Source of the DNA: a virus
Virus record (IMG/VR): IMGVR_UViG_3300020473_000021
Span: 32,001 to 96,000 of that record
DNA: 64,000 nt
Reading direction: 5' to 3' (one strand)
Every line of letters starts with the position of its first letter. Within the stretch, counting starts at the first letter, position 1. Made by a program: the position numbers and the translations under genes. Below are positions 13,436 to 57,900 of this stretch, in pieces. The notes under the pieces are model-generated. The model was given only the letters and a program-made list of their open reading frames with translations. It did no database searches and had not been told where the DNA came from.

Positions 13436-14242
13436 TTAATCGCGACGGAAGCGCTCGTAAGCCTCTTCCATCTTTTCATCATAACGGTTTTCTTCATAAG
13501 CTGGACCGTTGTAAGCATATGCAAACGATGCCCAGTCTAACTCACGTAACGCATCAAGTAAACGATTGTCTGCCTCGATGAACCTAACAAAAGATTCTAG
13601 CTGCTTATGCTCACCTTCACACACTGAATCGTAGTAGTGTTGTGGGCTTTCATAACCTAATCGTTTCCAATGGAATCCCATGATTTGGAAACGACCATAA
13701 GAAGCCGATTCGATCGCCGCAGCGGGATTGAGAGACATTGCTTTGTCTAAGCGATGGTTTTCCTCAACTCCACCCGAATAACCGCCCCTGTCGGCGTTGA
13801 CGATGTCTGAGGCATATTTCTGACCAAGTTCTGCTGCTAACGTAAGATCATAATGCATGAGACGCTTAAGCATCCAGTGACGCTCAAATAACACTTTGAT
13901 TGTTCCGTCGCTATGGAAACCACCGCCAGACGATTCAACCTCACTGACTGCTCTGAGTGCCTCTACCTCGACGTCGAGGTATGCGGCTGCATCTTCGATA
14001 TCTTTTTCACGCAATGCCCAGTCTGGTTGTTTCTGATCATCCAGTTGCATTTCAATGAGAGTACGCTCACCAACAAGACCATCAACGACCAAACCTTCAG
14101 AACGTTGAAAAGCTTTTACAGCCCGTTCCGTACCAGGACCAAAGTCCCCATCAATAATGCCTTGATAGAAACCTCGTTCCTTCAACACTTCCTGTAGTTG
14201 TTCTACATCAGGTCCCGAAGAACCTAAACGCAATAAGTCCAT
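13436..14242 (-). CDS. Modular endolysin: peptidoglycan-binding domain plus N-acetylmuramidase (DUF3380-type)
   Basis: LRLGSSGPDVEQLQ..L..DGDFGPGTERAVKAFQ..GLVVDG (PG_binding_1); VES.G.GF, LFERH, SASYGRFQIMGFH, FA.AYNGP.Y..N.YD. Confidence 0.93.
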   Translation of the reverse strand: MDLLRLGSSGPDVEQLQEVLKERGFYQGIIDGDFGPGTERAVKAFQRSEGLVVDGLVGERTLIEMQLDDQKQPDWALREKDIEDAAAYLDVEVEALRAVSEVESSGGGFHSDGTIKVLFERHWMLKRLMHYDLTLAAELGQKYASDIVNADRGGYSGGVEENHRLDKAMSLNPAAAIESASYGRFQIMGFHWKRLGYESPQHYYDSVCEGEHKQLESFVRFIEADNRLLDALRELDWASFAYAYNGPAYEENRYDEKMEEAYERFRRD

Positions 14243-14252
14243 TGTAACCCCC

Positions 14253-14699
14253 TTAATGTCGTATATCCGGGTTATTAGACAACAGCGCCAGCCACAACCG
14301 GACTGGTGTGATCAAACCAGGATCGAACCGCAATGCCATGTTCCCTGCCCTCAACGCACCAGAGATGAACTCCGCTGGTGTAGCATGGTTACGATTATAG
14401 TTTTCAGTTGTAGGTAAACGAAACAGGTGTAACCACCCATAGCGTAGGTGTGTTCTATCTCTTATGTAATCGACGCAACGTCGCTGATCTGGGACATCAA
14501 CATTGATCTCTACATGTTTACCTAATAATTCATAAAAGATGTTCCGATGATGGATACGGACACCTTCATATTTACTTATTTCGCAGACAAACCCGTCCTT
14601 GAAATCTATTGCTACACGGTCCCATGGAGAAACCTGCATGATCCGACTAATGATCGATCCAGACCCCCCGCCACGAGAGAAAATGATGCTGGTAGACAT
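14253..14699 (-). CDS. Permuted NlpC/P60 (YaeF/YiiX-like) protein, probably catalytically inactive
   Basis: IIFSR..GS..SRI..SPW.RVAI..DG.V.E....GVR..Y....AEFI..AL..G...ITP..L pattern; His and Cys positions replaced. Confidence 0.55.
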   Translation of the reverse strand: MSTSIIFSRGGGSGSIISRIMQVSPWDRVAIDFKDGFVCEISKYEGVRIHHRNIFYELLGKHVEINVDVPDQRRCVDYIRDRTHLRYGWLHLFRLPTTENYNRNHATPAEFISGALRAGNMALRFDPGLITPVRLWLALLSNNPDIRH

Positions 14700-14834: not shown

Positions 14835-15278
14835 TTAATACTCAGTCACCCTTGAGGTGGTCCACTCAGTTGTCCAAGTGGTCGTATAAGGAACAGCTAT
14901 TTCAGTCAAACGTGAGGTTTGAAATGACGTCACTGTCGTTATATAACCAGATGTAACATGTGAAGTAGTCCAACTTGTGGTAACCTGTCGACTCACTGTG
15001 GTAGAACGAGACGTACCACGACTTGTATTTCGTGATGCCGTCCATGTGGTAGTATAATTGGTAGTCCTACTCACTGACGTCGAACGAGTCTTTGTTGTCG
15101 ATTTAGTCGTACTCCGACTTACGCTCCAGCTGGTGGTCCACGATGTCGTCCAACTTGACGTATATGACGTCGAACGAGACTCAGTACTATACAAAGTAAC
15201 CCAATCTCGAGTGTTGAAGTTAGTCGTATGACTACCCGTTATGGTATTATAACTAGTAGTCCATGAAGTGGTTGGCAT
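14835..15278 (-). CDS. Thr/Ser-rich tetrapeptide-repeat protein
   Basis: AGGAG RBS; almost entirely x-T-S-[W/Y/R/K] units (TTSW TTSY ... TASR NTSR GTSR). Confidence 0.85.
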   Translation of the reverse strand: MPTTSWTTSYNTITGSHTTNFNTRDWVTLYSTESRSTSYTSSWTTSWTTSWSVSRSTTKSTTKTRSTSVSRTTNYTTTWTASRNTSRGTSRSTTVSRQVTTSWTTSHVTSGYITTVTSFQTSRLTEIAVPYTTTWTTEWTTSRVTEY

Positions 15279-15289
15279 AGTGACTCCTA

Positions 15290-18200
15290 CTATTTCTTAA
15301 CTACGACTCCGCCACCGGGTATGTTGTGAACCAACAACCCACCAGCAAAGTAAGTATCGTATTCTTCAACATCAATACTGACAGTATCGAATTCACCAGT
15401 AACATACACCATGGTTTCGATGAGTACTTCTTCGAGTTCTTCGTTAAGCATGATATCGCCAACTTCAAGATCTCGAACATCAAACCATGACCAACCATTG
15501 CCTTTATTGGCAAGTACTTCGTGTTGTTTAGTAATGGTCAACGTGTCATTAATTAAATAACCCGCACGGAACCAATCCCTTTCAACACTTCTAACAGTAA
15601 CATCGACGTATGTAGGTTTCGATAGGCTTTGTGTTGTCCAATCTCTCCAACCATCGATACTCTCATCGATCATACCTTCAATGTTAACACCACGTAGAAC
15701 GTCACCGACTTTAACATCTCCAGCTAAGATGGTTTCGCCAGATGCCAACCAAAGTTTGGTATCGAGCGATATACAACCACCACCACCACCACCGCCGGAA
15801 TAAGTATTCCTGCTGGTCGTTTTAGAGGTAGAACGAACGGTGTCGGTTGTACGATATGAATAAGTATACTGCATGTAAGAGGATACATATTGAGTATTGC
15901 GTGATCCTTGCTTACTCGTCGTTCGACTGGTCGATTTACTCGTTGACCAACTCGTGGTATAGCTTGTAGATGCGCTATAATTGGTATTAACACTAAAGAA
16001 CGTCGTTTTACTGGTCGTACGACTTGCCGTCCATGAAGTGGTAAAGCTTGTCGTCCAATTAGTATTCCAAACGCTATCTTTAAACGTTTGTCTACTGGTG
16101 GTGTAACTTGTGTTACGCTCCATATAGACTTGCGTGTTACGACTGGTATTGAATCGAGTTGTATATGAACTCATGCGCTCAGTCGTACGAGAGGTCTGTT
16201 TAGATGTTGTCCATTGAGTCACACGACGACGCATAACTTGCAGCTGATAACGATCTGACCAACTACTCCATCCTGCACCAGAACTTTGGTAGCGAACTTG
16301 AAGTTGTAATCCCACATCACTACCTGGTCGGAACCCATTGTTATATGGATTGTGTTTCGTTAGGTCTGATGTAGATTGAACATCGTAAACTACCGTACCA
16401 GATGCATCGCGGATACGCCACTGAGTCCTGATGTGGTCTTCATCGCCATCATACAGACTACCCACCATAGTAAACTCACGAGTGATGCGACCGTCAGCTT
16501 CGCGACCACTAGCCGTTACCGCCGGTTTAGCAATGCGCATGGTATCGATAATGTAAGTCTCAGACCAAGGACTGTCGGTTACGCGATAACCTGCATGTTT
16601 AACGCGAGCATATAGTCGCGTATCGCTTGGCATACCCTTAACGGCTTTACTCGTTAATTCAGTCTTAGACAATTGATCAATCAACCGGTTAGAGAAGTTA
16701 GCGTCAGTAGCTACTTGCCAAACCGAATGACGATGACTGTCGAACGAATCATACGGTCTAACACCAAACGGCGTTGTCTTTATATCGAAATCGATAGGAA
16801 CTCGAGGCATATTACCGGTAACCGCAGGCCACGTAATGGTTGGCTGTTCAACACCACTAAACACAATGTGTAACGTGACCGTTCTAGCTTTACCATCTTT
16901 ATATACCGTAAAGGGTTGATTACCTAAAGGTGAGTTCTTAACAATCTGACCTGTGAAACGTTCACCGACAACACTAATGTCACCTACAGGAGTTTCTACA
17001 GCATAAGAACTCCCCACGTGGTAGTTGGTTATCATCAAGTCGATGTCTTCAGCTTGATAATAACGATTCTCACCATCAAGGTTTATACCACCCATCTCAC
17101 CCGCAGCTTCAAAGGCAGCATCCATCTCGGCTAACGAGACATTATCAACATTACCTAATCCCAACTGTTGTTTGGTGACTTTATGTGGGTTGTTGAAGTT
17201 ACCAGTGTGTGATGATAGCGCATCACCGACAAGGTTATCGATACTCACCTTTAACGTATATGGCGTTAAGTAGTGTGAATCACTCAGACCCTGACTTGCT
17301 ATCGATTCGCTAGCTAATCCATAGTTAACTACTTGACCTAGATTAACTTGCGCTTTAGTAACCTCATGTGGATTTTCTTTATCGGCGATATGCTGATCAA
17401 CCAACACACCACCTTGCTCAGATATGGCAAAGCGCATACCCAACGGATGAATATACGTAAAGTCGTTCTCACCCGTAATAGTTAATGCATTAGATGCCAT
17501 CGGATAATTGTTTAGTTGACCTAAACCCACTTGAGCTTTAGTGACTTGGTGTGGATTGGTATAATCTTCCAAGTGTTGAGTATAATCAGGAACCCACTGC
17601 TCTCCAATCAACCAATGCATTCTGGCCGGAGTTACAAACTTATTTGTGACACCCGACTCATCTGCCATGTCGGAGTTAGTCGCTTCAGCAAAGTTATCAA
17701 CTTCACTCAAACCAACTTGTATCTTAGTGACATCGTGAGGGTCATTATTATCATTAGCGTGATTGGCTAAGTTTTCCAATACCTGATCGAAGTAATCGTT
17801 CAACAAATCCAAACGGTGTTGGAGCATGGCGAATATTTCATCGTGACTCGCTCCATCACCCACAACAAGTGCGGTATGGATCTTCTTCATCAGGTTGACG
17901 AGGAATTCCCAACCATAGATATCCACAATATCAGTCAAGTGACTTTCAGGTGGTAAGAATTCTGGACGACCTAATATACGACCCCATTGAACTTCACGCT
18001 CGTTGAGTTGTAGATCTTCCATTGCGTCGATGATGGCCGGTGCAATAGAAGAGTAATCGCCACCGACACTTTGATATGTCAAACGGATGTTGTTTGATAC
18101 AGACTCATCGGTGATAACGATCCCGGCATAAACGGCTTTATTACTCCGCTCAGTTGGCTCAGTAAAATAAAGAGCTGGCCGATATTGATCTTTATTTAAC

Positions 18201-18373
18201 GGCTGATTATTATCGATATCGTAGATGTTAACAGAGTCAAGATAGAAAGCCCCACCATGGGGCGCAAGGAATCGCTCCTTGTCCCCTAATAATGTTCTTT
18301 GCTCATCACTCACTAAATTAAGTGGTGATTGACCCGTTAGATCTAAGGGATATCTTTGAACACTTACGTCCAT
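15290..18373 (-). CDS. Tail-fibre-like virion protein (phiKZ gp145/146-type N-terminus) with FN3-like domains, Thr/Ser repeat tract and C-terminal Hint domain
   Basis: YPLDLTGQSPLNLV N-domain; 4 PHxVTKxQ(V/L)xL repeats; two WQ/WR...VRY/VKH...SxWS FN3-like units; Gly7-CIS...TKQH...GGLLVHN. Confidence 0.85.
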   Translation of the reverse strand: MDVSVQRYPLDLTGQSPLNLVSDEQRTLLGDKERFLAPHGGAFYLDSVNIYDIDNNQPLNKDQYRPALYFTEPTERSNKAVYAGIVITDESVSNNIRLTYQSVGGDYSSIAPAIIDAMEDLQLNEREVQWGRILGRPEFLPPESHLTDIVDIYGWEFLVNLMKKIHTALVVGDGASHDEIFAMLQHRLDLLNDYFDQVLENLANHANDNNDPHDVTKIQVGLSEVDNFAEATNSDMADESGVTNKFVTPARMHWLIGEQWVPDYTQHLEDYTNPHQVTKAQVGLGQLNNYPMASNALTITGENDFTYIHPLGMRFAISEQGGVLVDQHIADKENPHEVTKAQVNLGQVVNYGLASESIASQGLSDSHYLTPYTLKVSIDNLVGDALSSHTGNFNNPHKVTKQQLGLGNVDNVSLAEMDAAFEAAGEMGGINLDGENRYYQAEDIDLMITNYHVGSSYAVETPVGDISVVGERFTGQIVKNSPLGNQPFTVYKDGKARTVTLHIVFSGVEQPTITWPAVTGNMPRVPIDFDIKTTPFGVRPYDSFDSHRHSVWQVATDANFSNRLIDQLSKTELTSKAVKGMPSDTRLYARVKHAGYRVTDSPWSETYIIDTMRIAKPAVTASGREADGRITREFTMVGSLYDGDEDHIRTQWRIRDASGTVVYDVQSTSDLTKHNPYNNGFRPGSDVGLQLQVRYQSSGAGWSSWSDRYQLQVMRRRVTQWTTSKQTSRTTERMSSYTTRFNTSRNTQVYMERNTSYTTSRQTFKDSVWNTNWTTSFTTSWTASRTTSKTTFFSVNTNYSASTSYTTSWSTSKSTSRTTSKQGSRNTQYVSSYMQYTYSYRTTDTVRSTSKTTSRNTYSGGGGGGGCISLDTKLWLASGETILAGDVKVGDVLRGVNIEGMIDESIDGWRDWTTQSLSKPTYVDVTVRSVERDWFRAGYLINDTLTITKQHEVLANKGNGWSWFDVRDLEVGDIMLNEELEEVLIETMVYVTGEFDTVSIDVEEYDTYFAGGLLVHNIPGGGVVVKK
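15323..15775 (-). other. Hint (intein-like) autoprocessing domain
   Basis: Cys1 (CISLDTKL), DVKVGD, block B TxxH (TKQH), DLEVGD, block F/G SIDVE..TYFAGGLLVHN; +1 residue is Ile. Confidence 0.85.
15797..16222 (-). repeat. Tetrapeptide (12-bp period) repeat tract x-T-S-[W/Y/F/R/K]
   Basis: VTQW TTSK QTSR TTER MSSY TTRF NTSR ... TTSF TTSW TASR TTSK ... STSY TTSW STSK STSR TTSK. Confidence 0.85.
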
Positions 18374-19424: not shown

Positions 19425-21623
19425 CTACACGATCTCGACTTCAAGAACGCTTGGTTCTCCATTTCGATAAACCGTCATTTTACTTGGACCTGTCGCCCAA
19501 TCCGATTTAACTACGCCTGGAACGATGTCATCGCCAATAGGGAACTGTAGCACATCCCACGTAGACAATGCTTGACTCAAACAACCGAATCCAATCTGTT
19601 GTGCTCCACGGAACACATGTAGATCAGGATCGTCATTTAAGTCGATAGTGAACGTTGCATCAGGTATGTAGTCTGATGTGTTTGTCTGTGTGGTTTCTAC
19701 AGTAATGGTATCACCCACACGCGTCGCTTTAATGCGGACACCGTTAGGTACATCATCCCAACCGTTATTAGGATCATTAGACGAAGTAGGTTTAGAACCT
19801 ACAGAACCATCCGGCCATTTCAAGATACCTTGATAGCGATGTAGTTCTTTCGAATCGACACCGATGGCAAAGTTTTTATGGATTCTGAACTGACCACTGG
19901 TATTGAAACGACGAACAGCCTCAAGCGTATGGACTTGACCACTTGCATCACGAGCATAAGCCAAGACGATACCGATATAGTCATCGTCGCCATTAGCCGA
20001 GCTAACTCTCGCTTCAAATACGTAGTTCTGGTAAGATTCAGGTGAGATAAACCCGATATAAGTTGTGGAGTTAATTGTACACTCAACTGAGTTGGTATCA
20101 GTATTGTACTGCCACGCATTCATCTCAGATTCATCGAATGTCGTCGTTAGCGTATCGCCTTTACGACTGAAACGAGTCCAAGAGTTCAGTATCTCTTGCC
20201 ATGAAGCGCCCTTACCGCCTAGGTTCATCGTTAAAAATGGTGCATCAACTGAATAGTCACTGTAACTATCGTAGTTGGTGATCTGCCATTCATAAGGTTT
20301 ACCACGCGATACCGTAAGTGGACCATCTAACGTAGTTAAGTAGTTAGATCCCGACAATGCGAATCGCTTATCGAGTTGAGCGATCGACATGTTAGGTACC
20401 TTACCTAAACCTACTTGTGCCTTAGTGACCTTATGTGGATTATCCTTACGTGCTACGTGATTCGCTATCTCATCGCCTGCGGCTTGATCTATAGCCTCTT
20501 TAGCTGTTCTGGGAGATAGATATAAGTCGTTACGAGAACCGTCCTTAGCTTGCTGTATAGAAGCCATAGCGAAGTTCTTGAGTAACCCCAATCCCACCTG
20601 ATGCTTAGTGACATTATGTGGGTTAGTGAAATCCTCCAAATGCGCTTGAAGTATTGCACCACCTTGATCGGCGATAGCTCTGCGAGCTAAGTCAGGCGTC
20701 ACATAACGATCGTCTCTCGTGCCCTCTATAGCTTCTTCAATCGTCGCCACAAGAAGGTTAAGTACTTTTCCTAATCCGACCTGAGCTTTAGTCACCTGAT
20801 GAGGATTGTTACGATCGTTTAAATGTTTATCAAGATCTCTCAAGATAAACTCATTAAGGATATCCATCACCTTACTAGGCGTTAGACGAGTATTGTTATT
20901 GAACTCATCATACGCTTCGTCTGTGGTCGATTTAGCGTAGTTAGCAACGTTGCCTAAACCCACTTGGGATTTAGTTACATTGTGGGGATTATCACGACGT
21001 GCTTTATGTTCACGAATACGCATGAGTACGCTATCGGCATATGCATCCATCGATCCATATTCACGTTCAATAAACGCTTCAATCTCAATGTGGGACGTTA
21101 CATCCTTACGCAACACAAGGTCTGTCATGTCGTTCAGTACTTGTACGACATACTCCCAACCGTATATATCACCGATATCATGCAAATGCTGTACAGGTGG
21201 AAATACAGATGGTCTACCAAAAACGTCACCCCAGAGTACCTCACGTTCATCTAAGTTGATGTTATTAATCAAGTTAGCGATGACGGGTTCTATGTTACAA
21301 TAAACACCACCCAACACTTGGTAGTCAACGATTACTCGATCGCCTATCTCAGGATCGGTAATGACGACACCACAACAAATTTCACTATCGGCCAACTTAC
21401 TGGCTTCAGGATAATGAAGTACTGGAATGTATTGCGACTTGATATTAAGTTCACGACCCGTATCGGCATCTCTTACAATGAGCGTGTCTGTGAAGAAAGC
21501 GCCGTGTCGAGTAACAACACTTCGATTGATACCGGGCTTTAGCGTGTGAGGTTCCCCCACTACACGGTTGACAGGCGATTCACCCGTCTTATCTAATCGG
21601 TACTTACGTACGATCTCTTTCAT
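19425..21623 (-). CDS. Tail-fibre-like virion protein with inserted lectin-like (TSP C-terminal-like) domain
   Basis: YRLDKTGESPVNRV N-domain paralogous to 15290; 4 NPHxVTK repeats; GDDDYIGIVLAY motif. Confidence 0.8.
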   Translation of the reverse strand: MKEIVRKYRLDKTGESPVNRVVGEPHTLKPGINRSVVTRHGAFFTDTLIVRDADTGRELNIKSQYIPVLHYPEASKLADSEICCGVVITDPEIGDRVIVDYQVLGGVYCNIEPVIANLINNINLDEREVLWGDVFGRPSVFPPVQHLHDIGDIYGWEYVVQVLNDMTDLVLRKDVTSHIEIEAFIEREYGSMDAYADSVLMRIREHKARRDNPHNVTKSQVGLGNVANYAKSTTDEAYDEFNNNTRLTPSKVMDILNEFILRDLDKHLNDRNNPHQVTKAQVGLGKVLNLLVATIEEAIEGTRDDRYVTPDLARRAIADQGGAILQAHLEDFTNPHNVTKHQVGLGLLKNFAMASIQQAKDGSRNDLYLSPRTAKEAIDQAAGDEIANHVARKDNPHKVTKAQVGLGKVPNMSIAQLDKRFALSGSNYLTTLDGPLTVSRGKPYEWQITNYDSYSDYSVDAPFLTMNLGGKGASWQEILNSWTRFSRKGDTLTTTFDESEMNAWQYNTDTNSVECTINSTTYIGFISPESYQNYVFEARVSSANGDDDYIGIVLAYARDASGQVHTLEAVRRFNTSGQFRIHKNFAIGVDSKELHRYQGILKWPDGSVGSKPTSSNDPNNGWDDVPNGVRIKATRVGDTITVETTQTNTSDYIPDATFTIDLNDDPDLHVFRGAQQIGFGCLSQALSTWDVLQFPIGDDIVPGVVKSDWATGPSKMTVYRNGEPSVLEVEIV

Positions 21624-21629
21624 GATAAT

Positions 21630-22097
21630 CTACTCCTGCATCATCGCTTCTCGATGGTTATCGAGTAGTCTTCCCTTAACACCCACTTCAACTTTACCGT
21701 CGGGAGACCCTTTCTTCGCGATCTTCTTATAATACATCCATCCCATGGCACGCACAGCATAATACATTGAGGTGGCGGCCCAACCGGGTACACCTTCTTC
21801 CAACATACCGCGTTTGAATAAATCATCTGCTTCTTTACGCGTTACACGTCTTGAAGCATATAGGTAGTCGTGCAATAGAGCCGCCCATACAGAACGCCCC
21901 TTAATAGCAGCGTAGATATATGGAACCTTTGGAACGCTGTCTAAGTCTGTAGTGAAGCCAGTCGGTACGGTGTGACCATATTTGTTCCAATCTTCAACAA
22001 CGACCCACCAACCTCGTTTTGGTAATGGTGCAAGTGTCGGGACATTAATGTTATCGATGAACGACTTAACGTCCTTTATTTGCATTTGATCTTTCAT
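21630..22097 (-). CDS. DUF1353 family protein
   Basis: VPTGFTTDLDSVP, AALLHDYLY, RKEADDLF, MYYAVRAMGW. Confidence 0.85.
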   Translation of the reverse strand: MKDQMQIKDVKSFIDNINVPTLAPLPKRGWWVVVEDWNKYGHTVPTGFTTDLDSVPKVPYIYAAIKGRSVWAALLHDYLYASRRVTRKEADDLFKRGMLEEGVPGWAATSMYYAVRAMGWMYYKKIAKKGSPDGKVEVGVKGRLLDNHREAMMQE

Positions 22098-22131
22098 GAG
22101 TCACCCAAAAATATTTAAATCAGTCATAAAG

Positions 22132-22169
22132 ATATCACCACCGCCGAGACCATCGGACAGTGGTGATAT
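22132..22169 (-). terminator. Extended hairpin after gene 22174..22737
   Basis: ATATCACCACTG/CGGTGGTGATAT stem plus CCGA/TCGG inner stem on the minus strand. Confidence 0.6.
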
Positions 22170-22173
22170 ATCA

Positions 22174-22737
22174 TCAATATTGGGGATCAGTATTCCTCAT
22201 ACCCTCTATAATGGCCTTATGATTCTCAAATGTAGAGACAACGTCAGCAGTAGCGGCCGTTCTAATCTCCGCCTTTGCTACTAATCGGGCAGCGCGTAGT
22301 TGACGCACAAACTCCTTTAGTCGACCCATCTCCACTTTGATATCATTAACGGCCCAACTAACCGTCTCACCTTTAACATCGGCCCAAACTTGTATTTCAA
22401 GTGGTACGCTACCCTCGGTGGTAGGTGATCCTGCTTCTTCCCATTCTCGAATGGCTTCTTCTACCTGACGATATTCAATATCGATAGAGCGGAAACCGAC
22501 TTCCATGTGACTGACACGAACCTCATCTGAGATCCTATCGATCTCAGATAAATAGTACTCTCGCATGGTAAGCCACACACCATCGGTTTTCTCTTTAACG
22601 AAGTCTATCTCAGTCTGATCTAGCTCCGTCATATCGTCGCCCAACACTTCCACTGAAGAGTAAGCCATGTCCCCGTATACGAGTTTTACCGAACCACGAT
22701 AATCCTCAGGGCCTGTCATTGTATATTTAACAAACAT
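22174..22737 (-). CDS. Putative tail fibre assembly chaperone
   Basis: ID..SD.VR...EY.....A..W...G...VP..I..WA...LR.ARL.AK..I pattern; lies among fibre genes. Confidence 0.55.
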   Translation of the reverse strand: MFVKYTMTGPEDYRGSVKLVYGDMAYSSVEVLGDDMTELDQTEIDFVKEKTDGVWLTMREYYLSEIDRISDEVRVSHMEVGFRSIDIEYRQVEEAIREWEEAGSPTTEGSVPLEIQVWADVKGETVSWAVNDIKVEMGRLKEFVRQLRAARLVAKAEIRTAATADVVSTFENHKAIIEGMRNTDPQY

Positions 22738-22747
22738 TGATAATCAC

Positions 22748-23218
22748 CTATGTAGTCGGTAAAGCTTCAAGGTAGTGGACTGTTGCAAATCCATCCAAAC
22801 CAGACATGTCGGTTTGACACCCGATATACACTTCCGGTCCTGTTAACGTTATTTGAATACCGTTGTCGGTCCTGAAGAAATCGCTAGATGTGGAATGTGG
22901 TAAAGGTAACACCGTCGAAGTCGTTCGCGAACGAGCAAAACAGTTGGACGTATCTAAGTAGGCCGTCGTAGGGTCCCAGACATCAGTCACAGCAGTCGGT
23001 ACCGGCACAACCTTCGTTGTTGAATTAGGCAATGCACCTAAAGGTATTCTAACGGCCATAACTCTGCGATTCCCTACATACATGTTTGTCTTATAGGGGA
23101 CAGATTGAGTACTGGGAACAATTATACGGGCTTCTTCAGCAATGCGATCGATAAGACCCGATACAAAGCCTCCAAAAGCCTGAGCAGCTTCTGCTGCTTT
23201 ATTTGAAATATCTCCCAT
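22748..23218 (-). CDS. Small tail-fibre-associated protein
   Basis: Short N-helix plus beta-rich GALPNSTTK..LPLP..VHY domain; fibre cluster context. Confidence 0.55.
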   Translation of the reverse strand: MGDISNKAAEAAQAFGGFVSGLIDRIAEEARIIVPSTQSVPYKTNMYVGNRRVMAVRIPLGALPNSTTKVVPVPTAVTDVWDPTTAYLDTSNCFARSRTTSTVLPLPHSTSSDFFRTDNGIQITLTGPEVYIGCQTDMSGLDGFATVHYLEALPTT

Positions 23219-23283
23219 TACTTTGCCCTCAAAGAGTTAGTGAGGGGCGACTAAGCGCCCCTCTAAGACAAATCACCCACCAA

Positions 23284-24171
23284 TTAGGTAGTGGTGTAAG
23301 GCGCATTCAGGTCTGCGATAGCATCAGTAAATGCTTGAGTCAGAGTACTGATTGAGCTTGCCACTTCGTTTGTGTCTGCTTTGGTGTCAATGCGACCATT
23401 CAGGGTATTCTCTGTATCGGTCAATGCACCGTCAAGACCTGCTGGTGTAACAAACAGATCAGTCGCTGTACGAGACTGAGTTTGAGCTACTGTCGCTGTC
23501 GCGAAGTTGTCGACGTTAGCCAAACCGATGTCTGCTTTAGTTAATGCAGCAATCGTGTCGTTCAGGTTTTGGATCTGAGTGTTAACCGTGGTCTGATCAG
23601 CTTTTAAGTTGATAGCCGCAGTTAGGTCAGTTTCCAATTGATCAACAGTGGTTTTCGCCGCTTTGGTCGCAACCGCGTCGTTCAATACACCTAAACTGTC
23701 TTGGTTTGCAGAAATTGCAGTAGCAACTTCGTTGATGGTATCCAACGTTTCAGGAGCGATACCTGCTTGCGATTCCCAGAACGCGTTGATAGCCTGCATT
23801 ACACGACGTGGCGTCATGTATACTTCGTTCGTTGCGATAGCCGCGTCCAACTCTTCTGCTTGAGTTAAGTCAGCGATACCGTAGTTCTGGACGTTACCCA
23901 AACCAACCTGTGCGGCGGTTACGTTATGTGGGTTGTCCGTACGAGCAATGAATGCATCCAGTTGGTTCTTGACTTCAAGAGTTGTCAAACCAGTGGTACC
24001 GGCGATCAATAGTACAACGTCATTCAACGATTGACCTTCAAGCGCCAGCGAGTTTTGTGCCAAGTCAGCAGTTTCTGCATTCTTAGCGTCTTTAGCGATC
24101 TCTTTGATCTTAGCACCGAAGGCCAGGATCTGATCACGAAGATTAGCGGTGTTGGTAGTAATAGCTGTCAT
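23284..24171 (-). CDS. Short tail-fibre-like virion protein
   Basis: NPHNVTAAQVGLGNVQN repeat and APETLDTINEVATAI fibre motif. Confidence 0.75.
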   Translation of the reverse strand: MTAITTNTANLRDQILAFGAKIKEIAKDAKNAETADLAQNSLALEGQSLNDVVLLIAGTTGLTTLEVKNQLDAFIARTDNPHNVTAAQVGLGNVQNYGIADLTQAEELDAAIATNEVYMTPRRVMQAINAFWESQAGIAPETLDTINEVATAISANQDSLGVLNDAVATKAAKTTVDQLETDLTAAINLKADQTTVNTQIQNLNDTIAALTKADIGLANVDNFATATVAQTQSRTATDLFVTPAGLDGALTDTENTLNGRIDTKADTNEVASSISTLTQAFTDAIADLNAPYTTT

Positions 24172-24250
24172 GCTGGTTACCCTTTTAAGTTAATAATGGA
24201 AAATGCATATCGATCGATGTTTGACATTATATCAACCATACGATGGGTAT

Positions 24251-24898
24251 TTACTGCTCTAGTAATACATCAAAGTCATTTAAGACTTCTGACATTAAAG
24301 AGCGGTTACTTACATATGCCTTTTCAACGACACGTTTGGTTGGTAGGTCATCTTTACCAACCTTGTTAGGGTCATTAATAATGGCAATGTTGTAAATTAA
24401 TACAGGTTGTTGAAATGTGTAGATAAAGTTATTATCGTGTCTTATCTTTTCAACATGCCGAACATTATTCAGTTCAGCAACTCTACCATCCGAGATGGTG
24501 ACTTCCTCTTTTGCAAGGCTAGCACCGTTTAACCGTCTGAGTGATTCTCTTAAATCTTTAAACGGTTTACCTTTGGCAACAACTTCTAAGAAATGGCGAC
24601 GTATTAACATCGTAACATTCTCGATAGTAGTACCGATGGTTCCGGTGTTGAACGTGAAGGTCTGCTCACCTAGATGTTTCGATTTAAACACTTCACCCGA
24701 ATCCATATCCACTGAAATGTCTGGTTGCTTACAGTCGTACCAATGTAAAATCCGATATGAAACAACCCGATGTTTAGCAGGATATGGAGCAGAGTAAATA
24801 TCTATATCGATAGGTTGACAAAACACACCCCGACATACGCCTTCATTAGTCTCCAACCGTTCGGTATAAAAAAGCCCAGTACTTTTTGTAATGGTCAT
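24251..24898 (-). CDS. Hypothetical protein
   Basis: GAGG RBS before ATG 24898 (the longer track start lies in a terminator). Confidence 0.7.
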   Translation of the reverse strand: MTITKSTGLFYTERLETNEGVCRGVFCQPIDIDIYSAPYPAKHRVVSYRILHWYDCKQPDISVDMDSGEVFKSKHLGEQTFTFNTGTIGTTIENVTMLIRRHFLEVVAKGKPFKDLRESLRRLNGASLAKEEVTISDGRVAELNNVRHVEKIRHDNNFIYTFQQPVLIYNIAIINDPNKVGKDDLPTKRVVEKAYVSNRSLMSEVLNDFDVLLEQ

Positions 24899-24908
24899 CT
24901 CTACCTCA

Positions 24909-24939
24909 TAAATAAAAGAGGGGACCAACGCCCCCTCTT
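24909..24939 (-). terminator. Intrinsic terminator
   Basis: AAGAGGGG...CCCCTCTT plus T-tract on the minus strand. Confidence 0.75.
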
Positions 24940-24940
24940 G

Positions 24941-27679
24941 TTAACGTTTAGAGAAGTATGTCTCACCTTTCGGCCCGACAAACATCCAACCTAAGTTAGA
25001 TACCACCGCTCGCTTATAACCGATTACATCGGTATCAAAGTCATACGCAAACCAAGTTTCACCTTTGTTGGTGCTGCGGAATATCTGATCGCCGTCTGAG
25101 ACAACGAGGAATAGGCTATCGATTTCATCTGAACGACCTAAAGTAGGATTGAACTCAATGTCCAAAATACTCCAAGTATCAAATGCGAAATCATAGTTAG
25201 CCGTTTCACCGTTAGCATCTTTGAAAAAGACGTTATTGATATCCATGATATCAACAAACGTCATATCGCTTGAGATGCCATTGCTACGACCAGAAATGAT
25301 CTCATCAATACCCTGGCCAGGCTGGAATATAAACGGACCATTGTTGGTTGCTAAGAAAACCATGCCTTTATCAAATCGAGAGTAATCTCGAATCTCACTG
25401 ATTTCGGCATTAGTTTCTTCAGTCCAAGTCACACCCGCATCACCACTGTGGAAAATTGAATCGTTCGTGATGATAACGAAGTTGTTACTTGAGAACTGAC
25501 CTGCGCCATTAATGGTAAGTTTACTAGACAACCCAGTAGGCGTAACATCGTTCCAGTTAGTTCCACCGTTCGATGTACGGAATACTTGTTTGTTAACCGT
25601 AACCACAACCCAAGCATCACCCGTAACGCCTAAGGCTAAGATATCGTCGGTTGTAGGACTATTTAACGAGCTCCAGCTAGAGCCATTAAATCGAGCAATG
25701 CGTCCGCCAACACCCGCAACGATAAATGTACCGTCAGGAGCCGCCTGAAGGGCGTCTATGGATAGATTATAGCTCTCACCTTGGTCTGGATCACCAATAA
25801 AGATACCGTAAGAATATTTCTGTTGGATATCGATTAGGTGTTTACCATCGAGACGCCAGTTAAGATCTTCAAATGACGTAGTCACGCTCTCAGAGAAGTT
25901 CCGCTCATCTTCTTTGATGGTTTCAATCTCAGGCATGACGATTTGATCAATCTGGACTTTTGTCAAGTAAGGTGTGCTATACATATTCTCAACGTTCTGC
26001 TTGGCCTGTTCAGCAGTTGCTACCGACCAGTTGGCAACGTTGCCCAACCCGACTTGAGACTTAGTCACTTGGTGTGGGTTATCAGTCCGCGCTACGTGTT
26101 CCTGTATAGGAGGTAATGCAATCTGATCAACCGTTGCACGTACACCAGCTGGCGTTGCGTACATCTCTTCACTTTCACCCGTCACAGTCGCTGCAACACT
26201 CGCTACGCTATAGTTAGCAACCTGACCAAGACCAACGTCTGCTTTTGTCGTACCACGAGCACGCAATAAAGCATAGTTACCATCTTGTTGTGCATATCGA
26301 GCATCGTAGTCACCCCTTGAGTAGTTTTCTACTTTACTCAAGCCAATCTGATCTTTAGTCACATTGTGTGGGTTGTTCTGATTCTCTTTATGGTTATCAA
26401 TCGCAGCAATAGCAACGTAGTTGATCGCCTCAGCAGTTGCTTCTGGTGTCATAAACTTGTTGTTGGCAACACCATCACGAGCGTCTTGAGCTGTCGCTGT
26501 ATTATAGTTATCGACATTTCCTAACCCAACTTGTCCTTTCGTTACGTTGTGAGGATTGTCCGTGTTGGAATAGTGAGACAAAGCTAATTGTTTAACTTCA
26601 GTATCGATGGCAGCGAATACGCCCGCAGGGGTAGCAAACAAGGATTGGGATGTACCCTCTCTATGTTCTGTGATAGTTGCTGCTTTATAGTTAGGTACAT
26701 TACCTAACCCAACCTGACCCTTGGTCACGTTGTGAGGGTTATTGGATGCACCCACGTGATCTACAACGTCAGCACCAATACGGTTTTCAACGGCCGCTGC
26801 TACACCTTTTGGTGTAACAAACAATGTTTCTGATGTACCGTCTAACGTTTCACCCACAGTTGCCGTTTCGAAGTTATCGACTTTTCCAAGCCCCACCTGA
26901 CCTTTAGTAACGCCATGTGGGTTATCTTTGGCAGCAATGTGATCATCCACTTTGTTTCCAACTTGCACTTTAATTGCTTCAGCAACAACAAGTGGAGTAG
27001 TAAAGCGAACATTAGATTCACCAGCCTGACCCTCTTCAACGGAAGCGGTGGGATAGTTATCCACACTACCAAGTCCGACTTGGGTTTTTGTGACTTCGTG
27101 TGGATTATCGGTTTTAAGTGCGTGAGCAGCTGCTGCACCACCATCCAATTCACCATTAGCGATCGAATCTTTAATGGCTTGTAAGACATCAACTAAATCT
27201 GATGCACCTACTAAGTCTACCAGATCCCACTCGTGATCAATGACTGGGAATTTTTCCGGTAATTGTACAACCTGCTCCCAAGTTGTAATACGTGGGTTAT
27301 TAACCACGTTTGAAAGTAGCTCTGCCGCCTTGGATTCATCAATAATCCATTTACCGCCGATCGTTTGGTATTCAAGCTCTAATGTACCCGATATATCATC
27401 GTTGTAGATAGAGATGGCACCATACACAGGTTTAGCAGTGGCTTTCGAGGCAGAGTTAAATTGATATGATAGAACATAGTCTTCCCCTTTGATAAGTTCC
27501 TTACCAGAGGGATAGTGGACAATCTTCAACCCATCTTCAAAGAACGGTCCAGAGAACGGAACAATGAAGTAGTAATCCAGATAATCTGGAGGGCTAACGA
27601 TATGTCTTTCATTTTTGACCAAGTTCTCAGATTTCCGACCCGTTGGATCAAACGGATAGGTGTAAGATACCTCTGTCAT
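24941..27679 (-). CDS. Tail-fibre-like virion protein with C-terminal BNR/Asp-box beta-propeller
   Basis: YPFDPTG..SENLV N-domain; 6 NPHxVTK repeats; TSNGGTNW, SGDAGVTW, STNKGETW Asp-boxes. Confidence 0.85.
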   Translation of the reverse strand: MTEVSYTYPFDPTGRKSENLVKNERHIVSPPDYLDYYFIVPFSGPFFEDGLKIVHYPSGKELIKGEDYVLSYQFNSASKATAKPVYGAISIYNDDISGTLELEYQTIGGKWIIDESKAAELLSNVVNNPRITTWEQVVQLPEKFPVIDHEWDLVDLVGASDLVDVLQAIKDSIANGELDGGAAAAHALKTDNPHEVTKTQVGLGSVDNYPTASVEEGQAGESNVRFTTPLVVAEAIKVQVGNKVDDHIAAKDNPHGVTKGQVGLGKVDNFETATVGETLDGTSETLFVTPKGVAAAVENRIGADVVDHVGASNNPHNVTKGQVGLGNVPNYKAATITEHREGTSQSLFATPAGVFAAIDTEVKQLALSHYSNTDNPHNVTKGQVGLGNVDNYNTATAQDARDGVANNKFMTPEATAEAINYVAIAAIDNHKENQNNPHNVTKDQIGLSKVENYSRGDYDARYAQQDGNYALLRARGTTKADVGLGQVANYSVASVAATVTGESEEMYATPAGVRATVDQIALPPIQEHVARTDNPHQVTKSQVGLGNVANWSVATAEQAKQNVENMYSTPYLTKVQIDQIVMPEIETIKEDERNFSESVTTSFEDLNWRLDGKHLIDIQQKYSYGIFIGDPDQGESYNLSIDALQAAPDGTFIVAGVGGRIARFNGSSWSSLNSPTTDDILALGVTGDAWVVVTVNKQVFRTSNGGTNWNDVTPTGLSSKLTINGAGQFSSNNFVIITNDSIFHSGDAGVTWTEETNAEISEIRDYSRFDKGMVFLATNNGPFIFQPGQGIDEIISGRSNGISSDMTFVDIMDINNVFFKDANGETANYDFAFDTWSILDIEFNPTLGRSDEIDSLFLVVSDGDQIFRSTNKGETWFAYDFDTDVIGYKRAVVSNLGWMFVGPKGETYFSKR

Positions 27680-51988: not shown

Positions 51989-54900
51989 TCAACGATTCAT
52001 ATTTACGGCAGGTTTAACATCACCGTTACCGGTTGTGTTTTGCCGCTGTTTAGGTTTGTTGTCTTTTTTGTCTTTCGACTGAGACTCATCCTTCTTAGCA
52101 GCACCTGTACTATCTCTTAAGTAACTACTTATCTGAGACAGTTGATCCACCATAGTTTTCTGAACGCCAACGCTTTGATTCAGGATTGATACCATACGAT
52201 TGGTGTTCTCTGTTAACTTGGTGTTATGTACTTGGTTCTGAGCAGCAGCAGCTGCTACTGAACGTTCTTGACGTCTAGCGTCTCGATCAAGTACCTGTCT
52301 CGCTACAGCAGCTCGCTCATCCCGCTCATCGTCTACCGCAGTCGGTTTAGCATATTGACTACCATATACGCCGCGCTCTAACTCATTAGCTTTACGCAAC
52401 ATCATCTGTTTAGCACGCGGATTAGTTTGTCTCTCAGCAGCCGCACGTAATCTATCGGCAGCGCCGCGAGGGTCTAATCCACCATCAGATTCTTGGTCTC
52501 CCTCAACCCTTTGGGTGTCCCCTTGAGTATCGTTAGGTTCGTTTGGTTTAGAACCAGGAGATTCGAAATCTGCAAACAATGCTGCATCGGTTTGATAACC
52601 GTCAGCCTTCTGACCACCCAAGCGACCGAGCTCTTCTGTTTCATCCTTACCGAAGTCTGGACGACTCTTCTGAACATCAGCCTGACTTGATTGATCTTTA
52701 CGCGTTAAGAGTTCATTTAAAAACTCCCTTACTTGCGCTGAGTTATCACTTAGCTTGTAGTCTGGCCATGGTGGCGCAAAGACTGTCCATACAGACATCT
52801 GCGAACCATTAACCGCACTACGCATATTTGAAGCAACTTCATAAGGTCCTTGACCTTTAAGTGACATAGGACTATAAAACGAGCCTTTCATAGCACTCAT
52901 CTTACTCATGTATGTTGCTAACACGGGTATGAATCGTTTAGTGAACCATTCGGTCCATATCGTCCGATCTTTGTCAGACTCAGGATCACGACCAAACATG
53001 GAAGCGTATTCGTTGAATAGCTTCACACGAGACCCCTTAAACGTAGCCTTACCATTTGATATTTGCATCATTGGTTTGACGACACGTTCAAGTTCTAGTA
53101 AGTGTTGAACCTTTTCAGTTTCATCTGTCGATTGTAGGCCGTATGTAACTATACGAGTTTTACCAACAGCATCATTCACTAGACTCGCGTCTGGTAATTC
53201 AGCTACTTGACCCTCTTGGAGTTGTAACTCAATTGGACCCTCACCGTTTGCGGCAATTGCCATACCGGCTAAAGTTGTACCTTTAGAACCTTGACGTTTC
53301 TCCAACCGATTTGCAGCGTCTAACATCTTACGCTTTATTCGCGGATTATCCTGACGACTAGCGGATGCTCGCAACCGTTCGGCTGGCGTCATTGCCATGA
53401 GTTCTTCTTTGGTATGCTCAGTCTTCTCAGTCTGAGCTTCGGCTGTAGACGTATCCGTTGACTCACCCTCGCCTTCATCTTCAAGTTGTGACTCTAATAA
53501 CTCCATCACTTCATTGTAGACTCTATCGACTTGTGAGAAGCCAACGACACCACTATCTTCCTTGTATGGTGAGGTCATTTTACGATAGGGTGAATCTGGT
53601 CCATCTTCGAACTTCGACCGTTTCATCACCTCGATCTTTTCTTTAACCTCTAGCTGATCCTCCATATCCTCAACATCGAAATCTTCCATGTAAGGTTGGC
53701 CTGCTGCAATCCACGATAGATAGACTGGCTTAAAGCGATCATTCAACCACTGGTAGAACCGCTCTATCTGCTCTTCATCCTCTTCAGGATCAAGGTCGAT
53801 TTCATCCAACAGATCTTCAGGATCAACACCTTCAAGTTTAGGTGGTTGGTCTTTTGGCATGACGACGTAGTCTTGGAAAAAGTTTTCCAGCTTGTACATC
53901 ATACCAACATGCTCATCGTTCTCTAGGTCTGCACCGTATTGAGTATAACGAGCACGGTTGACATCGTCTAGATCGGCCTGATCTGCCCACTTATACAAGA
54001 AGTAAGCTCCAGCACCGATCGCAACAGCTGCACCGACTGCAAGTGCTACAGGAGCACCTAAGATGGATACTGCTGCTGTACCCAATGCCCATAGACCACG
54101 TATGGCCCAAGAGGTACCTGAGCGAATGACATTATTCCAAAGGAAACTACCAGCGGTTTTCAAACCCCCACCGATAGCATTTAGACCCAATGCCCCACCG
54201 ACTCTACTACCGACGTTCTTGACACCTTGCCAAAGTTTACCAAGTTTAGTCTTAGGCTTATTGTTCTTGTTATTGCGGTTCTTATCGCGATCCTTATCAT
54301 TATCGCCATCACCACCGACATCGACGTAGCTATAATCGTTACCATCATCGCCACCGTCTCCGCCGCCAAGACCAAATAACCCACCAAGCTTACTTAGGAT
54401 GCTATTTCCTTTATCGGCAAACTCACCTTTATCCTTACCATCTTTACCCTCGGCATCATCTTTCGATTTATCACCGTAAAGTTTAGAACGCCAACCGCCA
54501 TCGCGTAGTCCGTCATCATCTTGATCGAAGAACTTATCAGGCGGATTAACGCGCTCGTTAATCAGGTCACGGATTTCAGTAAGTAATTGAGTTTGCTGTT
54601 CTGAATCAGACAGTAGTTTCTCAGCGTTTTCACCTTTCAGTTTACCGCCGAACATTCCACCGAATAATCCACCTACAGCACCACCGATACCTTTAACAAC
54701 GCTCTTACTAGCCTTGAAGACACCTTTGGTTAACCCAACTGTCATATCTAGACCCTTACGGGTTAGGTTCATCGCATGTTGAACAAGACCATTACTTTTG
54801 CCAGTTGATAGATCCAACGGTTTCCCTCTGGAGTCAACTAAACCTTTCTTAATGTCTTCATGCGACAACACGACATTGCCATCGAGATCTAACACCTCAC

Positions 54901-57900
54901 CATCGATATCTTGGATGGTTCTAATGGGCTCCTCAGTTTCAGCCGATAGATAACCACCGGTTTTCATGATCACTGCACGGAGTCTAGGTTCTGTCTCACC
55001 TTTAACGTAAACGTCTTTAGCGGACTTCTCTTTTTCCTTACCAAATAACAAGCCTGGTAAGAAACCACCGACTTTCTTCACCGCAGTAAAAATACCGCTT
55101 TGAATAGAACGTGCAGCATTCCAATATCCACCGAATAAACCTTTAGCGCCTTTACCAAGTAATGATGCACCACCCTTTAAGAAATCAGCAATGGGTCGTG
55201 TTTCTTTTCCTGAAAGGACATACAACTTACCCTGCTCTACATCTTCGGATGTAATTACAACATCCCCATCGGAATTTATAACGGCACCATCGATATCATC
55301 GAATGAATGTATCGGATCACCAGATTCGAGGTCACTATATAACCCGCGCTTAAGGTCTCTAGCTAGGATGATGGGTTCTTCGACACCTTCAAGGTAGATA
55401 TCCGCAACCGTACTACTTCCCGATTGCTTCTCTCTTTTATTGAATAACCCACCAAGTAGATTACCCGCACCTTGTCCAGCGCCTTTGAATAGACTACCAA
55501 TACCGCTAAACGTTTTACCATAATAACCCATGAGGTTACTACCTACGCTAGCTGCACCAGAACGCAATGTATCGAAGGTCTTACCCAATACACCTCGGTT
55601 ATCTTGAGCTGCTATGGCGCGTATCAACATTTCAGTCTTAACATCCAAATGTTGTTTCAGCTCATCCAACCATGGTCTAAATGGTTCATCAGTTGCACTA
55701 TAGCGACCGCCTGACGATGGTTCACTATCACTAGGGTGTGGGAGTTCACCTGTTGGAGGCTCGTCGCCACCACCACCAAAGAAACGCGACTTCGCATTAT
55801 TCAGCAATCGATTAAACGATGCTCTAAACCGAGCAGTACCCGCAAGCTCATCTACCTTATCTGGCGATATGTCCGAATCGTCTAACTGACCAACGACCTC
55901 ATCCACCTCACCATTTGAGTTACCGAAATGCTCCGTTAGGTAAGAACGTAATTGCTCTACCTTACTACCGGCATTCTCTTTAAGGTCTGAAAATGAGTCT
56001 TGCATGGAAGCTCTAGCATCATCAAAACGACCTTTAGCTTCGTCCAGTTTAGGTTTGAACTTAGTGAACGTTTCCGATTGCTCTACGCGCTTACGTAGAT
56101 CACCATAACGAGTCGATAAGTCGTCAACCTTCGGACTGAACTTAGTGTATATATCCGAACTTTCCACACGACCTTTAATGTCATCGAAACGATCAGATAT
56201 ACCACTCACGAGATCATCTTTAACGAAACCAGCTCGACGAGCGAGTTCACGACGACCCTCTTCAGTTTGCATGTGATCGTAGATGCTTTCGCTTAAATTA
56301 ACCGCGTTTTCTTTAGCAGTATTTAGACTATCGAGAGCCTTATCCTTAGCATCTTGATATATCTCACCACGAGCATCTTTGTCAGACAAGATCTCCAATG
56401 CTTCGGAAGAGAAATCACTCAAAGCACCTAACCGTTTTTCTAACTCCTCGACGTACGGTTGGCCTTTAGCTTGTGCATCCTGATAAAGTCCTTGTATGTA
56501 AGCTTCACCATCTTCGGCTAACTTAACAACGTCGATACCGTTGTCCAATAAAAACTCATTGACATCACTCGAAACTTCATCAAACTTAGAACGCGCCTTA
56601 CCAACGTAGCCTTGCAGTTTAGATCCCTCATAACGCTCTGAGAGGTCGGCTCTTGCTTGATCCCACTTTCCCTTGGCTGAGTCGGTTAATCGACTTGCAT
56701 CGCCTTTGAGTTCGTCTAACACTGATTCAGAACTACGATAGCGACGGTAAGTACTCTCTACTTCACCGAGAGCTCTGTTTCCATACTCAGACGCCTTAGA
56801 ACGTAGACCTTCGGTCTTATCTTTAGCTTTACTGAATAGGTTTCCAGCCATAGTACCTAATTTCTCACCCATGGAACCTTCGCTATTGGGATTATAGGTA
56901 CTTTCACTAAAACCAACGTTAGGTTGTGGTTGACCAACGTCTCTATCCCAAGGCGACGTCACCATCGATTTAAATGAACCTACCGCTCTGTCCCAAGGAG
57001 AACTACCGCTAGGACCAGTCCAAGTTGGTCGATCCCAAGGGGAGCCGCCCGGTGGTGGTGTTCCGCCGCCTGATCCATCAGGTGGATCGCCATCAAAACG
57101 TTCTATAAGGAAATCGTAAATCCCTTCAATGAACGCTTTAGACTCATCCATCGTTTCCCACAGTACTTGTAGGTAAGGTTCTACCCACTGTTTAGCACTA
57201 TCCATCAGTTTGTCCCAACGTGAGACATCGACTTCAGGTTGTGGGGCGTATACAGGTTCACTGGACCCTACATCAGCGTTAGATATGTCATCTAGAACAT
57301 TGCGCTGACTACCTTGGACTTCAGTACGTACAACATTGCGATTGTCGTCTAGGTCTTTAAAGATGTCTCTTACAGTTTCAGAACGAGTTTCATGTAACCC
57401 ATCCTTACCTGTATATTCAGACAACCCAGCACGCTCAAGGACTCCAGAGCCATAGGTACTCGCACTTCTAGCAATAACCTCTTTATAGTTAGGTACACCC
57501 CGCTTAGCATCACCATACACCTTAGATGCATCCTTACGGATTTCACTAGCCTTTCTGTCTTTCTTAAACTTACCATCTTCCATGTATTGGTTGTTGATAA
57601 GTTGTGTAACTTTATCGGCTTCATCGCTTGATAACATATCGAGGTTATCAGCGTCGGCGTAATTTTCGATAGTAAACGCTTTGTTTTGGAAAACGTCTTT
57701 CTCAATCTGGTCTGCTAATTTAGCACGAGTCTCATTATCGAGTTTACCTTCACCATCTAAAAGGTCGACTACTTTGTTAACCTTTTCAGTTAGACCTCGA
57801 ACATCACCCGAATCGACAATCTTCTGACGAATGTCATCCTGTAATTGAGACTCTCTTACTACCTGTCCCTTATCGAAATCATAGACTTGTCGCTCTGCAT

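Follow-up and report, generated by a model that had tools for sequence, protein, structure and literature searches.

A-type bacterial intein-like (BIL) domains carry a conserved His-Asn pair and are cleaved at their ends, as passages of a review describe (PMC7765530), and a His-Asn pair without a nucleophile at the following (+1) position defines the type in excerpts of that review and of a second source (PMC7765530, PMC7664689). A eukaryotic example, BIL2 from the BUBL1 polyubiquitin-like locus of Tetrahymena thermophila (PDB 6Y75, 6TMM), lies between two folded ubiquitin-like domains; in excerpts of the depositors' account (PMC8616854), it splices a C-terminal Gly as an isopeptide to a lysine of the C-extein, conjugates ubl4 to ubl5 and Ras, and sets 'the nucleophilic lysine of ubl5' at the N-terminal junction. 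Here we describe a Hint domain at the C terminus of a phage tail fibre, encoded in a stretch of 64,000 nucleotides (nt) of virus DNA (IMG/VR record IMGVR_UViG_3300020473_000021, positions 32,001 to 96,000; this whole stretch is hereafter the window, and coordinates are counted from its first letter). It represents a divergent branch of the A-type BIL / PT-HINT kind, carried by phages and found in a setting new for that kind, and a lysine in the short tail that follows it is the most conserved feature outside the Hint. In contrast to BIL2, to which it is ~20-24% identical, its N-extein is an 866-amino acid (aa) phage fibre and its C-extein a 10-aa peptide; Zn-dependent activation through H48/H125 is a feature of BIL2.

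PT-HINT / A-type BIL domains such as that of Clostridium thermocellum (PDB 2LWY) usually precede a toxin domain that they free, whereas here 4-12 residues follow in most members; pretoxin release is ruled out for the window domain, the tail being too short for a toxin. Class 1 mini-inteins (TvoVMA 4O1S, Ssp DnaB) share with it the fold, blocks A, B, F and G and a size of ~150 aa, but the window Hint has no Cys, Ser or Thr at +1, does not sit in the conserved site of a housekeeping protein and has the 10-aa tail as its C-extein. A canonical intein is excluded by the Ile at +1 and by that short C-extein. The Hog domain of Hedgehog, according to passages of the review (PMC7765530), has no terminal His-Asn and depends on a sterol-recognition region that follows the Hint; here the pair is practically invariant and 10 aa follow, which leaves no region for Hedgehog-type sterol transfer and rules it out. 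Peptidase S74 of endosialidases and phage fibres (PMC7824862) occupies the same extreme C-terminal position and has the same presumed self-release, but the likeness is a functional analogy only, as fold and chemistry are unrelated (a Ser-Lys dyad in S74, a predicted Cys thioester with Asn cyclisation here). Membership of the S74 chaperone type was rejected, with no match to PF13884 at E<=1 in either P0001 (the fibre precursor) or P0002. In the literature searched, where subscription journals are mostly uncovered, we found no description of a Hint domain at a phage fibre C terminus; texts on jumbo phages (including vB_EamM_Y3) and on tail-fibre inteins dealt with true inteins only, such as terminase inteins, and one jumbo phage was reported to lack a Hint domain.

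Layout of the fibre C terminus

15290..18373, minus strand: open reading frame (ORF) of the tail-fibre precursor, 1027 aa (P0001), span including the TAG stop at 15290-15292; identified by phrog_2163, tail-protein and tail-fibre PHROGs, and tblastn to jumbo-phage fibre and virion proteins
15776..15796, minus strand: residues 860-866, a Gly7 linker that flanks the Hint at positions -1 to -7; from the DNA reading and TRF
15323..15775, minus strand: Hint / A-type BIL-like domain, 151 aa, ~17 kDa, Cys867 to Asn1017
15773..15775, minus strand: Cys1 (Cys867), the predicted thioester nucleophile, TGT codon
15521..15532, minus strand: block B Thr-Lys-Gln-His (TKQH), residues 948-951
15323..15328, minus strand: terminal His1016-Asn1017 (block G), CAC AAC
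15293..15322, minus strand: 10-aa tail IPGGGVVVKK, residues 1018-1027, with Lys1026-Lys1027 (15293-15298) as the proposed acyl acceptor

The ORF translation ends NTYS-GGGGGGG-CISLDTKLWLASGE...TITKQHEVLA...GGLLVHN-IPGGGVVVKK-stop, and the last 176 aa of the fibre read ...TTSRNTYS-GGGGGGG-C-ISLDTKLWLASGE...LTITKQHEVLA...DVEEYDTYFAGGLLVHN-IPGGGVVVKK. When checked against the DNA, every element that a previous sequence-only reading of this locus had listed (the Gly7 linker, Cys1, TKQH, His-Asn, the +1 Ile and the 10-aa tail) was in its place; the +1 residue is Ile1018, and ten residues follow Asn1017. Six of the linker codons are GGT in an uninterrupted row, (GGT)6, listed by TRF as (ACC)x6 on the plus strand at 15776-15793, and the linker of close relatives is G6 or GGGGVIGGG (P0009, P0010). 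The GGT run and this variation suggest that linker length may drift by slippage with the frame intact.

A divergent phage branch of A-type BIL domains

Compared as a single sequence with PDB sequences by phmmer, the domain aligned end to end with the mini-intein 4o1s_A (TvoVMA; E 4.4e-4, query 13-166 to chain 2-169). A family profile built from alignment A1 (76 rows, also the input to AlphaFold2) placed BIL2 (E 2.7e-14) and the C. thermocellum BIL (E 2.8e-14) as its top two matches in the same sequences. The AlphaFold2 model of the Hint region had a mean predicted local distance difference test (pLDDT) score of 90.8 and a predicted template modelling (pTM) score of 0.86, with only the linker and the last five residues uncertain. 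Foldseek returned 60 PDB matches at E<=0.001; the matches listed were all Hint-fold or intein-type proteins, the best being BIL2 (E 2.2e-9), TvoVMA and the C. thermocellum BIL. In a Pfam scan of the single sequence, PT-HINT (PF07591) scored 17.2 bits, under its gathering cut-off of 27.7, and Intein_splicing was likewise sub-threshold. Given the PF07591 score, we file the window Hint as a divergent subfamily and not as a formal Pfam member.

The domain has the horseshoe-shaped all-beta fold, the N-terminal nucleophile and the block B TxxH that mark the HINT superfamily. With PT-HINT and A-type BIL domains, which we take to be the same kind, it shares a C-terminal His-Asn without a +1 nucleophile (H1016-N1017-Ile1018) and residence in a variable, non-housekeeping host protein without a homing endonuclease insert, the 151-aa Hint ending a fibre whose C-terminal half varies between paralogues. 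At the level of sequence presence only, it also shares with BUBL-type domains an N-flank of the small Gly-Gly type and a C-extein Lys as candidate acceptor. The domain is very probably an active A-type BIL-like Hint. A complex prediction with three Hint copies, for which controls were not run, scored 0.00, which argues against trimerisation no more than for it.

Conservation of the catalytic residues

A phmmer search of 1.84 billion representatives found 925 clusters at E<=1e-3, 203 at <=1e-10 and 4 at <=1e-30. Our sample consisted of the best 150 of the 925 clusters plus the matches of one other search; P0004-P0007, which are translated from phage records with annotation, and P0008, the cluster of the window itself, were left out. 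It came to 158 proteins with 172 Hint copies; residues were counted in 124 whole-domain copies aligned to the window copy (125 rows). Cys1 is kept in 124/125 rows, the block B Thr in 116/125 and its His in 122/125, the terminal His in 125/125 and the terminal Asn in 124/125, while block F (D-V-E-x-x-D-x-Y-F) retains its Glu in 122/125 and its Asp in 121/125. Gly occupies -1 in 87/125. Counted over all copies, His-Asn is present in 168/172.

The Hint lies <=30 aa from the C terminus in 140/158 proteins, with a median tail of 7 aa; tails of 0, 1-3, 4-12, 13-30 and >30 residues follow 1, 18, 106, 15 and 28 copies, respectively. At +1, the 140 short-tailed proteins have Ala (30), Lys (22), Ile (11), Leu, Val and Asn (10 each) and others, with Cys, Ser or Thr in only 13/140 and in 0/57 unique copies of an independent IMG/VR set retrieved via block F alone. 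This pattern indicates that selection keeps the thioester and Asn-cyclisation machinery and not a +1 nucleophile. The claim of the sequence-only reading that the domain can cleave but cannot splice canonically is thus borne out, by a near-invariant catalytic set and by the absence of a +1 nucleophile both here and in 127/140 relatives.

The same counts bear on whether the Hint might be retained on the virion as a distal fibre knob. PHROG and RefSeq label homologues 'virion structural protein', which would suit retention, although the label covers the whole protein; near-invariant catalytic residues at both junctions are not expected of a purely structural domain, and we regard retention as very unlikely.

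A conserved lysine in the tail

The short tails share no sequence, and apart from lysine nothing in them is conserved. Lysine is present in 137/140 short tails, against 33.8 expected from the composition of the same proteins (Lys 3.8%), and 129/140 contain exactly one. The tails without it read 'AS', 'Y' and, in one case, nothing at all, and none has Arg; Lys-to-Arg is a common conservative change. The first Lys falls at +1 in 22 tails, at +2 to +3 in 19 and at +4 to +6 in 72, with the remainder further out (range +1 to +15), and in 79/137 the last Lys takes one of the two final positions of the protein. As a crude baseline, 43 ORFs of the window have Lys in their last 7 residues in 14/43 cases and in their last 2 residues in 7/43.

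The phmmer query included the tail, but most alignments stopped at query position 154-157, so the tail contributed almost nothing to the ranking of relatives. In the independent IMG/VR set, Lys is found in 16/16 terminal tails and at +1 in 38/41 internal copies, the latter mostly from a single subfamily. Long-tailed copies (>30 aa) have a Lys <=12 residues after the Hint in 23/28 cases, and the annotated phage examples have Lys after His-Asn in 4/4. The last five residues of the tail in the AlphaFold2 model (172-176) have pLDDT <50, and a tail left unplaced in this way is more in line with a tethered nucleophile than with a structural motif that docks. Conservation of the tail Lys is the new point of this analysis; the sequence-only reading, which had treated the tail as inert and had missed the A-type BIL match, was in these respects incomplete.

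Variable +1 residues and a near-constant lysine also bear on linear BIL-type splicing, in which Asn1017 would cyclise first and the freed alpha-amine of Ile1018 would attack the thioester to leave a GGGGGGG-IPGGGVVVKK end. Cys1, TxxH, His-Asn and a C-flank are all present for such a route. It gives no reason, however, for the invariant Lys or for a variable +1 residue, and it is a minor route for BILs in excerpts of PMC7664689; we consider it highly improbable here.

A candidate route to an isopeptide-linked fibre end

We propose a fibre precursor in which the final 161 residues would form a self-excising A-type BIL (PT-HINT-like) Hint with a 10-aa acceptor tail, all steps being drawn from conserved residues and homologues. 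The Hint would fold on the flexible Gly7 linker, and Cys867, aided by Thr948 and His951, would turn the Gly866-Cys867 peptide bond into a thioester by an N-to-S acyl shift. The epsilon-amine of Lys1026 or Lys1027, on a flexible tether that contains PGGG, would then attack the thioester and leave the C-terminal Gly of the fibre isopeptide-linked to the tail. Finally, Asn1017, aided by His1016, would cyclise and release the Hint, giving a mature fibre without the Hint, its Gly7 end attached to a short branched peptide. It is likely that the Hint is absent from the mature fibre; that the acyl group of Gly866 ends on a tail Lys is a serious possibility that we stop just short of calling probable.

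We favour the lysine route because it is the sole model that uses every conserved feature, that is, Cys1, TxxH, His-Asn, the tail and a single, never-Arg Lys at variable spacing, and because the closest solved homologue, BIL2, is reported to do exactly so. The counts for Cys1, Thr, His and His-Asn argue that both junctions are under selection, and a Hint that only hydrolysed its thioester would need neither His-Asn nor tail.

Kept catalytic residues would also suit cleavage alone, the main rival of the lysine route, with the Gly866-Cys867 thioester hydrolysed and Asn cyclisation merely shedding the tail; the Hint would then be a transient C-terminal folding or solubility module and the tail Lys a structural or catalytic-support residue. 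BIL domains 'produce predominantly cleaved products' in excerpts of PMC7664689 (also PMC7765530), the extreme C-terminal position on fibre-like proteins parallels that of S74 domains (PMC7824862), and the other fibres of the cluster have no Hint, with a separate tail assembly chaperone encoded nearby. Such cleavage leaves unexplained, however, both the retention of His-Asn and the single never-Arg tail Lys (137/140): N-cleavage alone would discard His-Asn and tail, and their retention therefore counts against it. Its chaperone role would be assigned by analogy, and one of 76 relatives carries Peptidase_S74 as well, which indicates that the two modules are not simply interchangeable. On balance, we find cleavage alone somewhat unlikely.

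Several points weigh against isopeptide formation on the tail Lys. The reading rests on conserved residues and on homologues of the protein and its phage relatives, and excerpts of PMC7664689 have bacterial A-type BILs giving mainly N- and C-cleaved products, which makes hydrolysis the documented default. The relatives sampled are those nearest the query, and the lysine rule covers these and not the whole 925-cluster family; the 38 internal copies with Lys at +1 are largely one subfamily (420-440-aa, HN-KGGNS...) and not independent. Spacing of Lys from Asn varies from +1 to +15 and is better fixed to the C terminus, which could mean a role tied to the free C terminus. A Gly run is not obligatory, since the phage's second Hint fibre carries Val in place of Gly at -1. 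In the structure comparison, several mini-inteins fall within ~2 Z units of BIL2. Nor is it obvious what use a fibre tip would have for a branched decapeptide.

Phage fibres shed C-terminal S74 chaperones, and by that analogy, already drawn in the sequence-only reading, the Hint may reasonably serve as a removable folding or solubility cap; quality control and blocking of the C terminus may be other purposes of excision. A far wider proposal, which we rate as improbable, is that all of the phage family, which numbers at least 925 clusters at 50% identity, might be an ATP-independent device for Gly-to-Lys isopeptide ligation, a viral equivalent of the 'ubiquitination by splicing' of ciliate BUBL and possibly its origin. 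Such a device could act in trans too, passing the Gly thioester to a Lys of a neighbouring chain, of another virion protein (perhaps the threonine/serine (T/S)-repeat protein described below) or of a host surface protein and so stapling the fibre tip, and tandem K-GGGG arrays would build branched chains.

If it does remove itself, the Hint would be a second self-removing fibre module, chemically unlike S74, and its excision an unstudied step of virion maturation. The single, never-substituted Lys makes the claim a precise one, of protein splicing that would end in an isopeptide, otherwise met only for the ciliate BIL. If correct, this claim would link phage virion proteins to ubiquitin-like Gly-Lys conjugation chemistry and provide a compact natural module (~160 aa) for thioester generation and Lys-directed ligation. 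Should it be wrong, A-type BIL domains have still turned up in a new context, and there is still a lysine rule to explain.

The downstream repeat protein

15800..16222, minus strand: Thr/Ser-rich region of the fibre, approximately residues 718-858, x-T-S-[W/R/K/Y] with a 4-residue period, directly before the Gly linker; from composition and autocorrelation
14835..15278, minus strand: Thr/Ser/Trp repeat ORF, 147 aa (P0003), downstream of the fibre, given as context only

The ORF at 14835..15278 begins 11 nt past the fibre stop and has GGAG before its ATG. Its product is 35% T and 20% S (T+S 0.55) with a clear 4-residue period, and the same period runs through the ~140 fibre residues just before Gly7 (T 24%, S 20%; autocorrelation peaks at lags 4, 8, 12 and 16). 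TRF found no DNA-level tandem repeat behind the period of P0003 or behind that of the fibre T/S region. In the second Hint fibre, the corresponding T/S repeat is longer, and a comparable ORF of 187 aa comes after the gene; the 147-aa and 187-aa products align only weakly with each other. The x-T-S-[W/R/K/Y] stretches (window 15800-16222 and 14835-15278, both minus strand; ~1000-1480 and 2034-2597 in L004, the locus of the second Hint fibre) have no family and no predicted structure. In the ESM Atlas, P0003's own model has a pLDDT of 0.24, and its feature matches at 0.89 are leads only.

A T/S-rich downstream gene was found in 0/13 related IMG/VR loci with a downstream ORF (T+S 0.06-0.19, against 0.55 here), which indicates that the repeat ORF tracks the fibre's own T/S region and not the Hint. 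It probably goes with that region, and its product may be a partner at the fibre tip. On the strength of the same loci, we reject the repeat ORF as a conserved Hint partner, and the ligation of the fibre to its downstream neighbour that the sequence-only reading had put forward finds no support there.

These loci also bear on ligation in trans more generally, in which the Gly866 thioester would be passed to an external nucleophile such as a Lys or N terminus of a virion protein (the T/S-repeat protein, for example), a small molecule or a host surface amine. In this phage, a T/S-repeat ORF comes after each of the two Hint fibres, and P0003 contains two Lys. The lack of such a gene in the related loci, the conservation of a built-in Lys in cis and a C-terminal end of 10 aa, with no adduct-recognition region, all stand against it, and we hold it to be very unlikely.

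Distribution of the family

Hint relatives occur by tblastn in 45 phage records, mostly jumbo-sized (39 Erwinia, 2 Dickeya and 1 each of Phage NCTB, Yersinia, Alcaligenes and Salmonella); Alexandravirus and Y3-like phages of Erwinia are among the carriers. Phage NCTB has three Hint-carrying genes, annotated 'intein domain' in GenBank, and the C termini read in it and in Erwinia phage pEa_SNUABM_1 are GGGGGG-C...VHN-APVDQKH, GGGG-C...IHN-AVMVAKK, VHN-KVD and SG-C...VHN-TDIVAKAEKK. An IMG/VR scan with one block-F pattern, drawn from a smaller alignment (A2), gave 163 confirmed relatives (contigs) among 247 matches. By these 163 contigs from a single pattern and the 45 phage records, the module is common in environmental phages.

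Among the 76 A1 members, 61 match phrog_38766 ('virion structural protein'), 41 match PT-HINT (E<=1e-3) and 29 match Intein_splicing. Collagen, Ig, BACON or fibre modules accompany the Hint in a few members, and one combines a Peptidase_S74 domain (E 1e-8) with its C-terminal Hint. Two source names, 'alpha-2-macroglobulin' and 'TIGR02543 repeat protein', hint at cellular genomes.

Two or three tandem Hints are found in the metagenomic proteins P0017, P0055, P0059, P0073, P0074, P0104, P0106, P0139, P0140 and P0164. The linkers between them are very short and mostly contain one Lys (HN-K-GGGG-C, HN-IPPK-C, HN-KYNG-C, HN-KP-C), and we read them as an acceptor Lys followed by a donor Gly. In a subfamily of 420-440-aa phage proteins (L020, L023-L032 and ~30 more IMG/VR loci), the Hint lies mid-protein with Leu at -1, and Lys-Gly-Gly and then a ~100-aa C-terminal domain follow, a real C-extein after the +1 Lys.

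Fibre genes and genomic context

17570..18367, minus strand: N-terminal attachment module of the fibre, residues 3-268, by its phrog_2163 match; the same PHROG is found on three paralogous fibre genes of the window

The tail-fibre label given by the sequence-only reading agrees with the match of residues 3-268 to phrog_2163 (E 9.8e-101), with the tail-protein and tail-fibre PHROGs that come next, and with tblastn, in which the first ~420 aa resemble fibre and virion proteins of 338 phage records with jumbo phages at the top. Megablast of the fibre gene against phages gave no match. The source virus record has 133,567 bases and is estimated to be 48% complete.

The window holds four paralogous fibre genes with the phrog_2163 N terminus, the Hint fibre and those at 19425..21623, 23284..24171 and 24941..27679. 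Across the paralogue cluster at 19425-27679 (minus strand), the N-terminal module is common and the C-terminal tips differ, and a Hint is present on 1/4 window paralogues. The tail assembly chaperone (phrog_1158) is at 21630..22097. A second Hint-ended protein of the same phage lies outside the window (G000:C1:127712-128227), with an open frame of 1305 aa. The Hint of this protein shares 61% identity with the window copy and is followed by the tail IPGGGSQVKR, while Val occupies -1 and a Gly run is missing.

Two further genes lie directly downstream of the fibre gene and its repeat ORF on the same strand, an endolysin gene (phrog_1224, E 2e-101) at 13436..14242 (minus) and a 148-aa ORF at 14253-14699 (minus) that had no PHROG match. 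The composition profile showed no GC island at the Hint. The window carries further jumbo-phage genes. At 51989-59377 (minus), a 2462-aa fibre-like protein (phrog_3201) adjoins a phage multisubunit RNA polymerase beta subunit (phrog_2986) at 59407-61044 (plus), a neighbourhood in keeping with a phiKZ-like jumbo phage.

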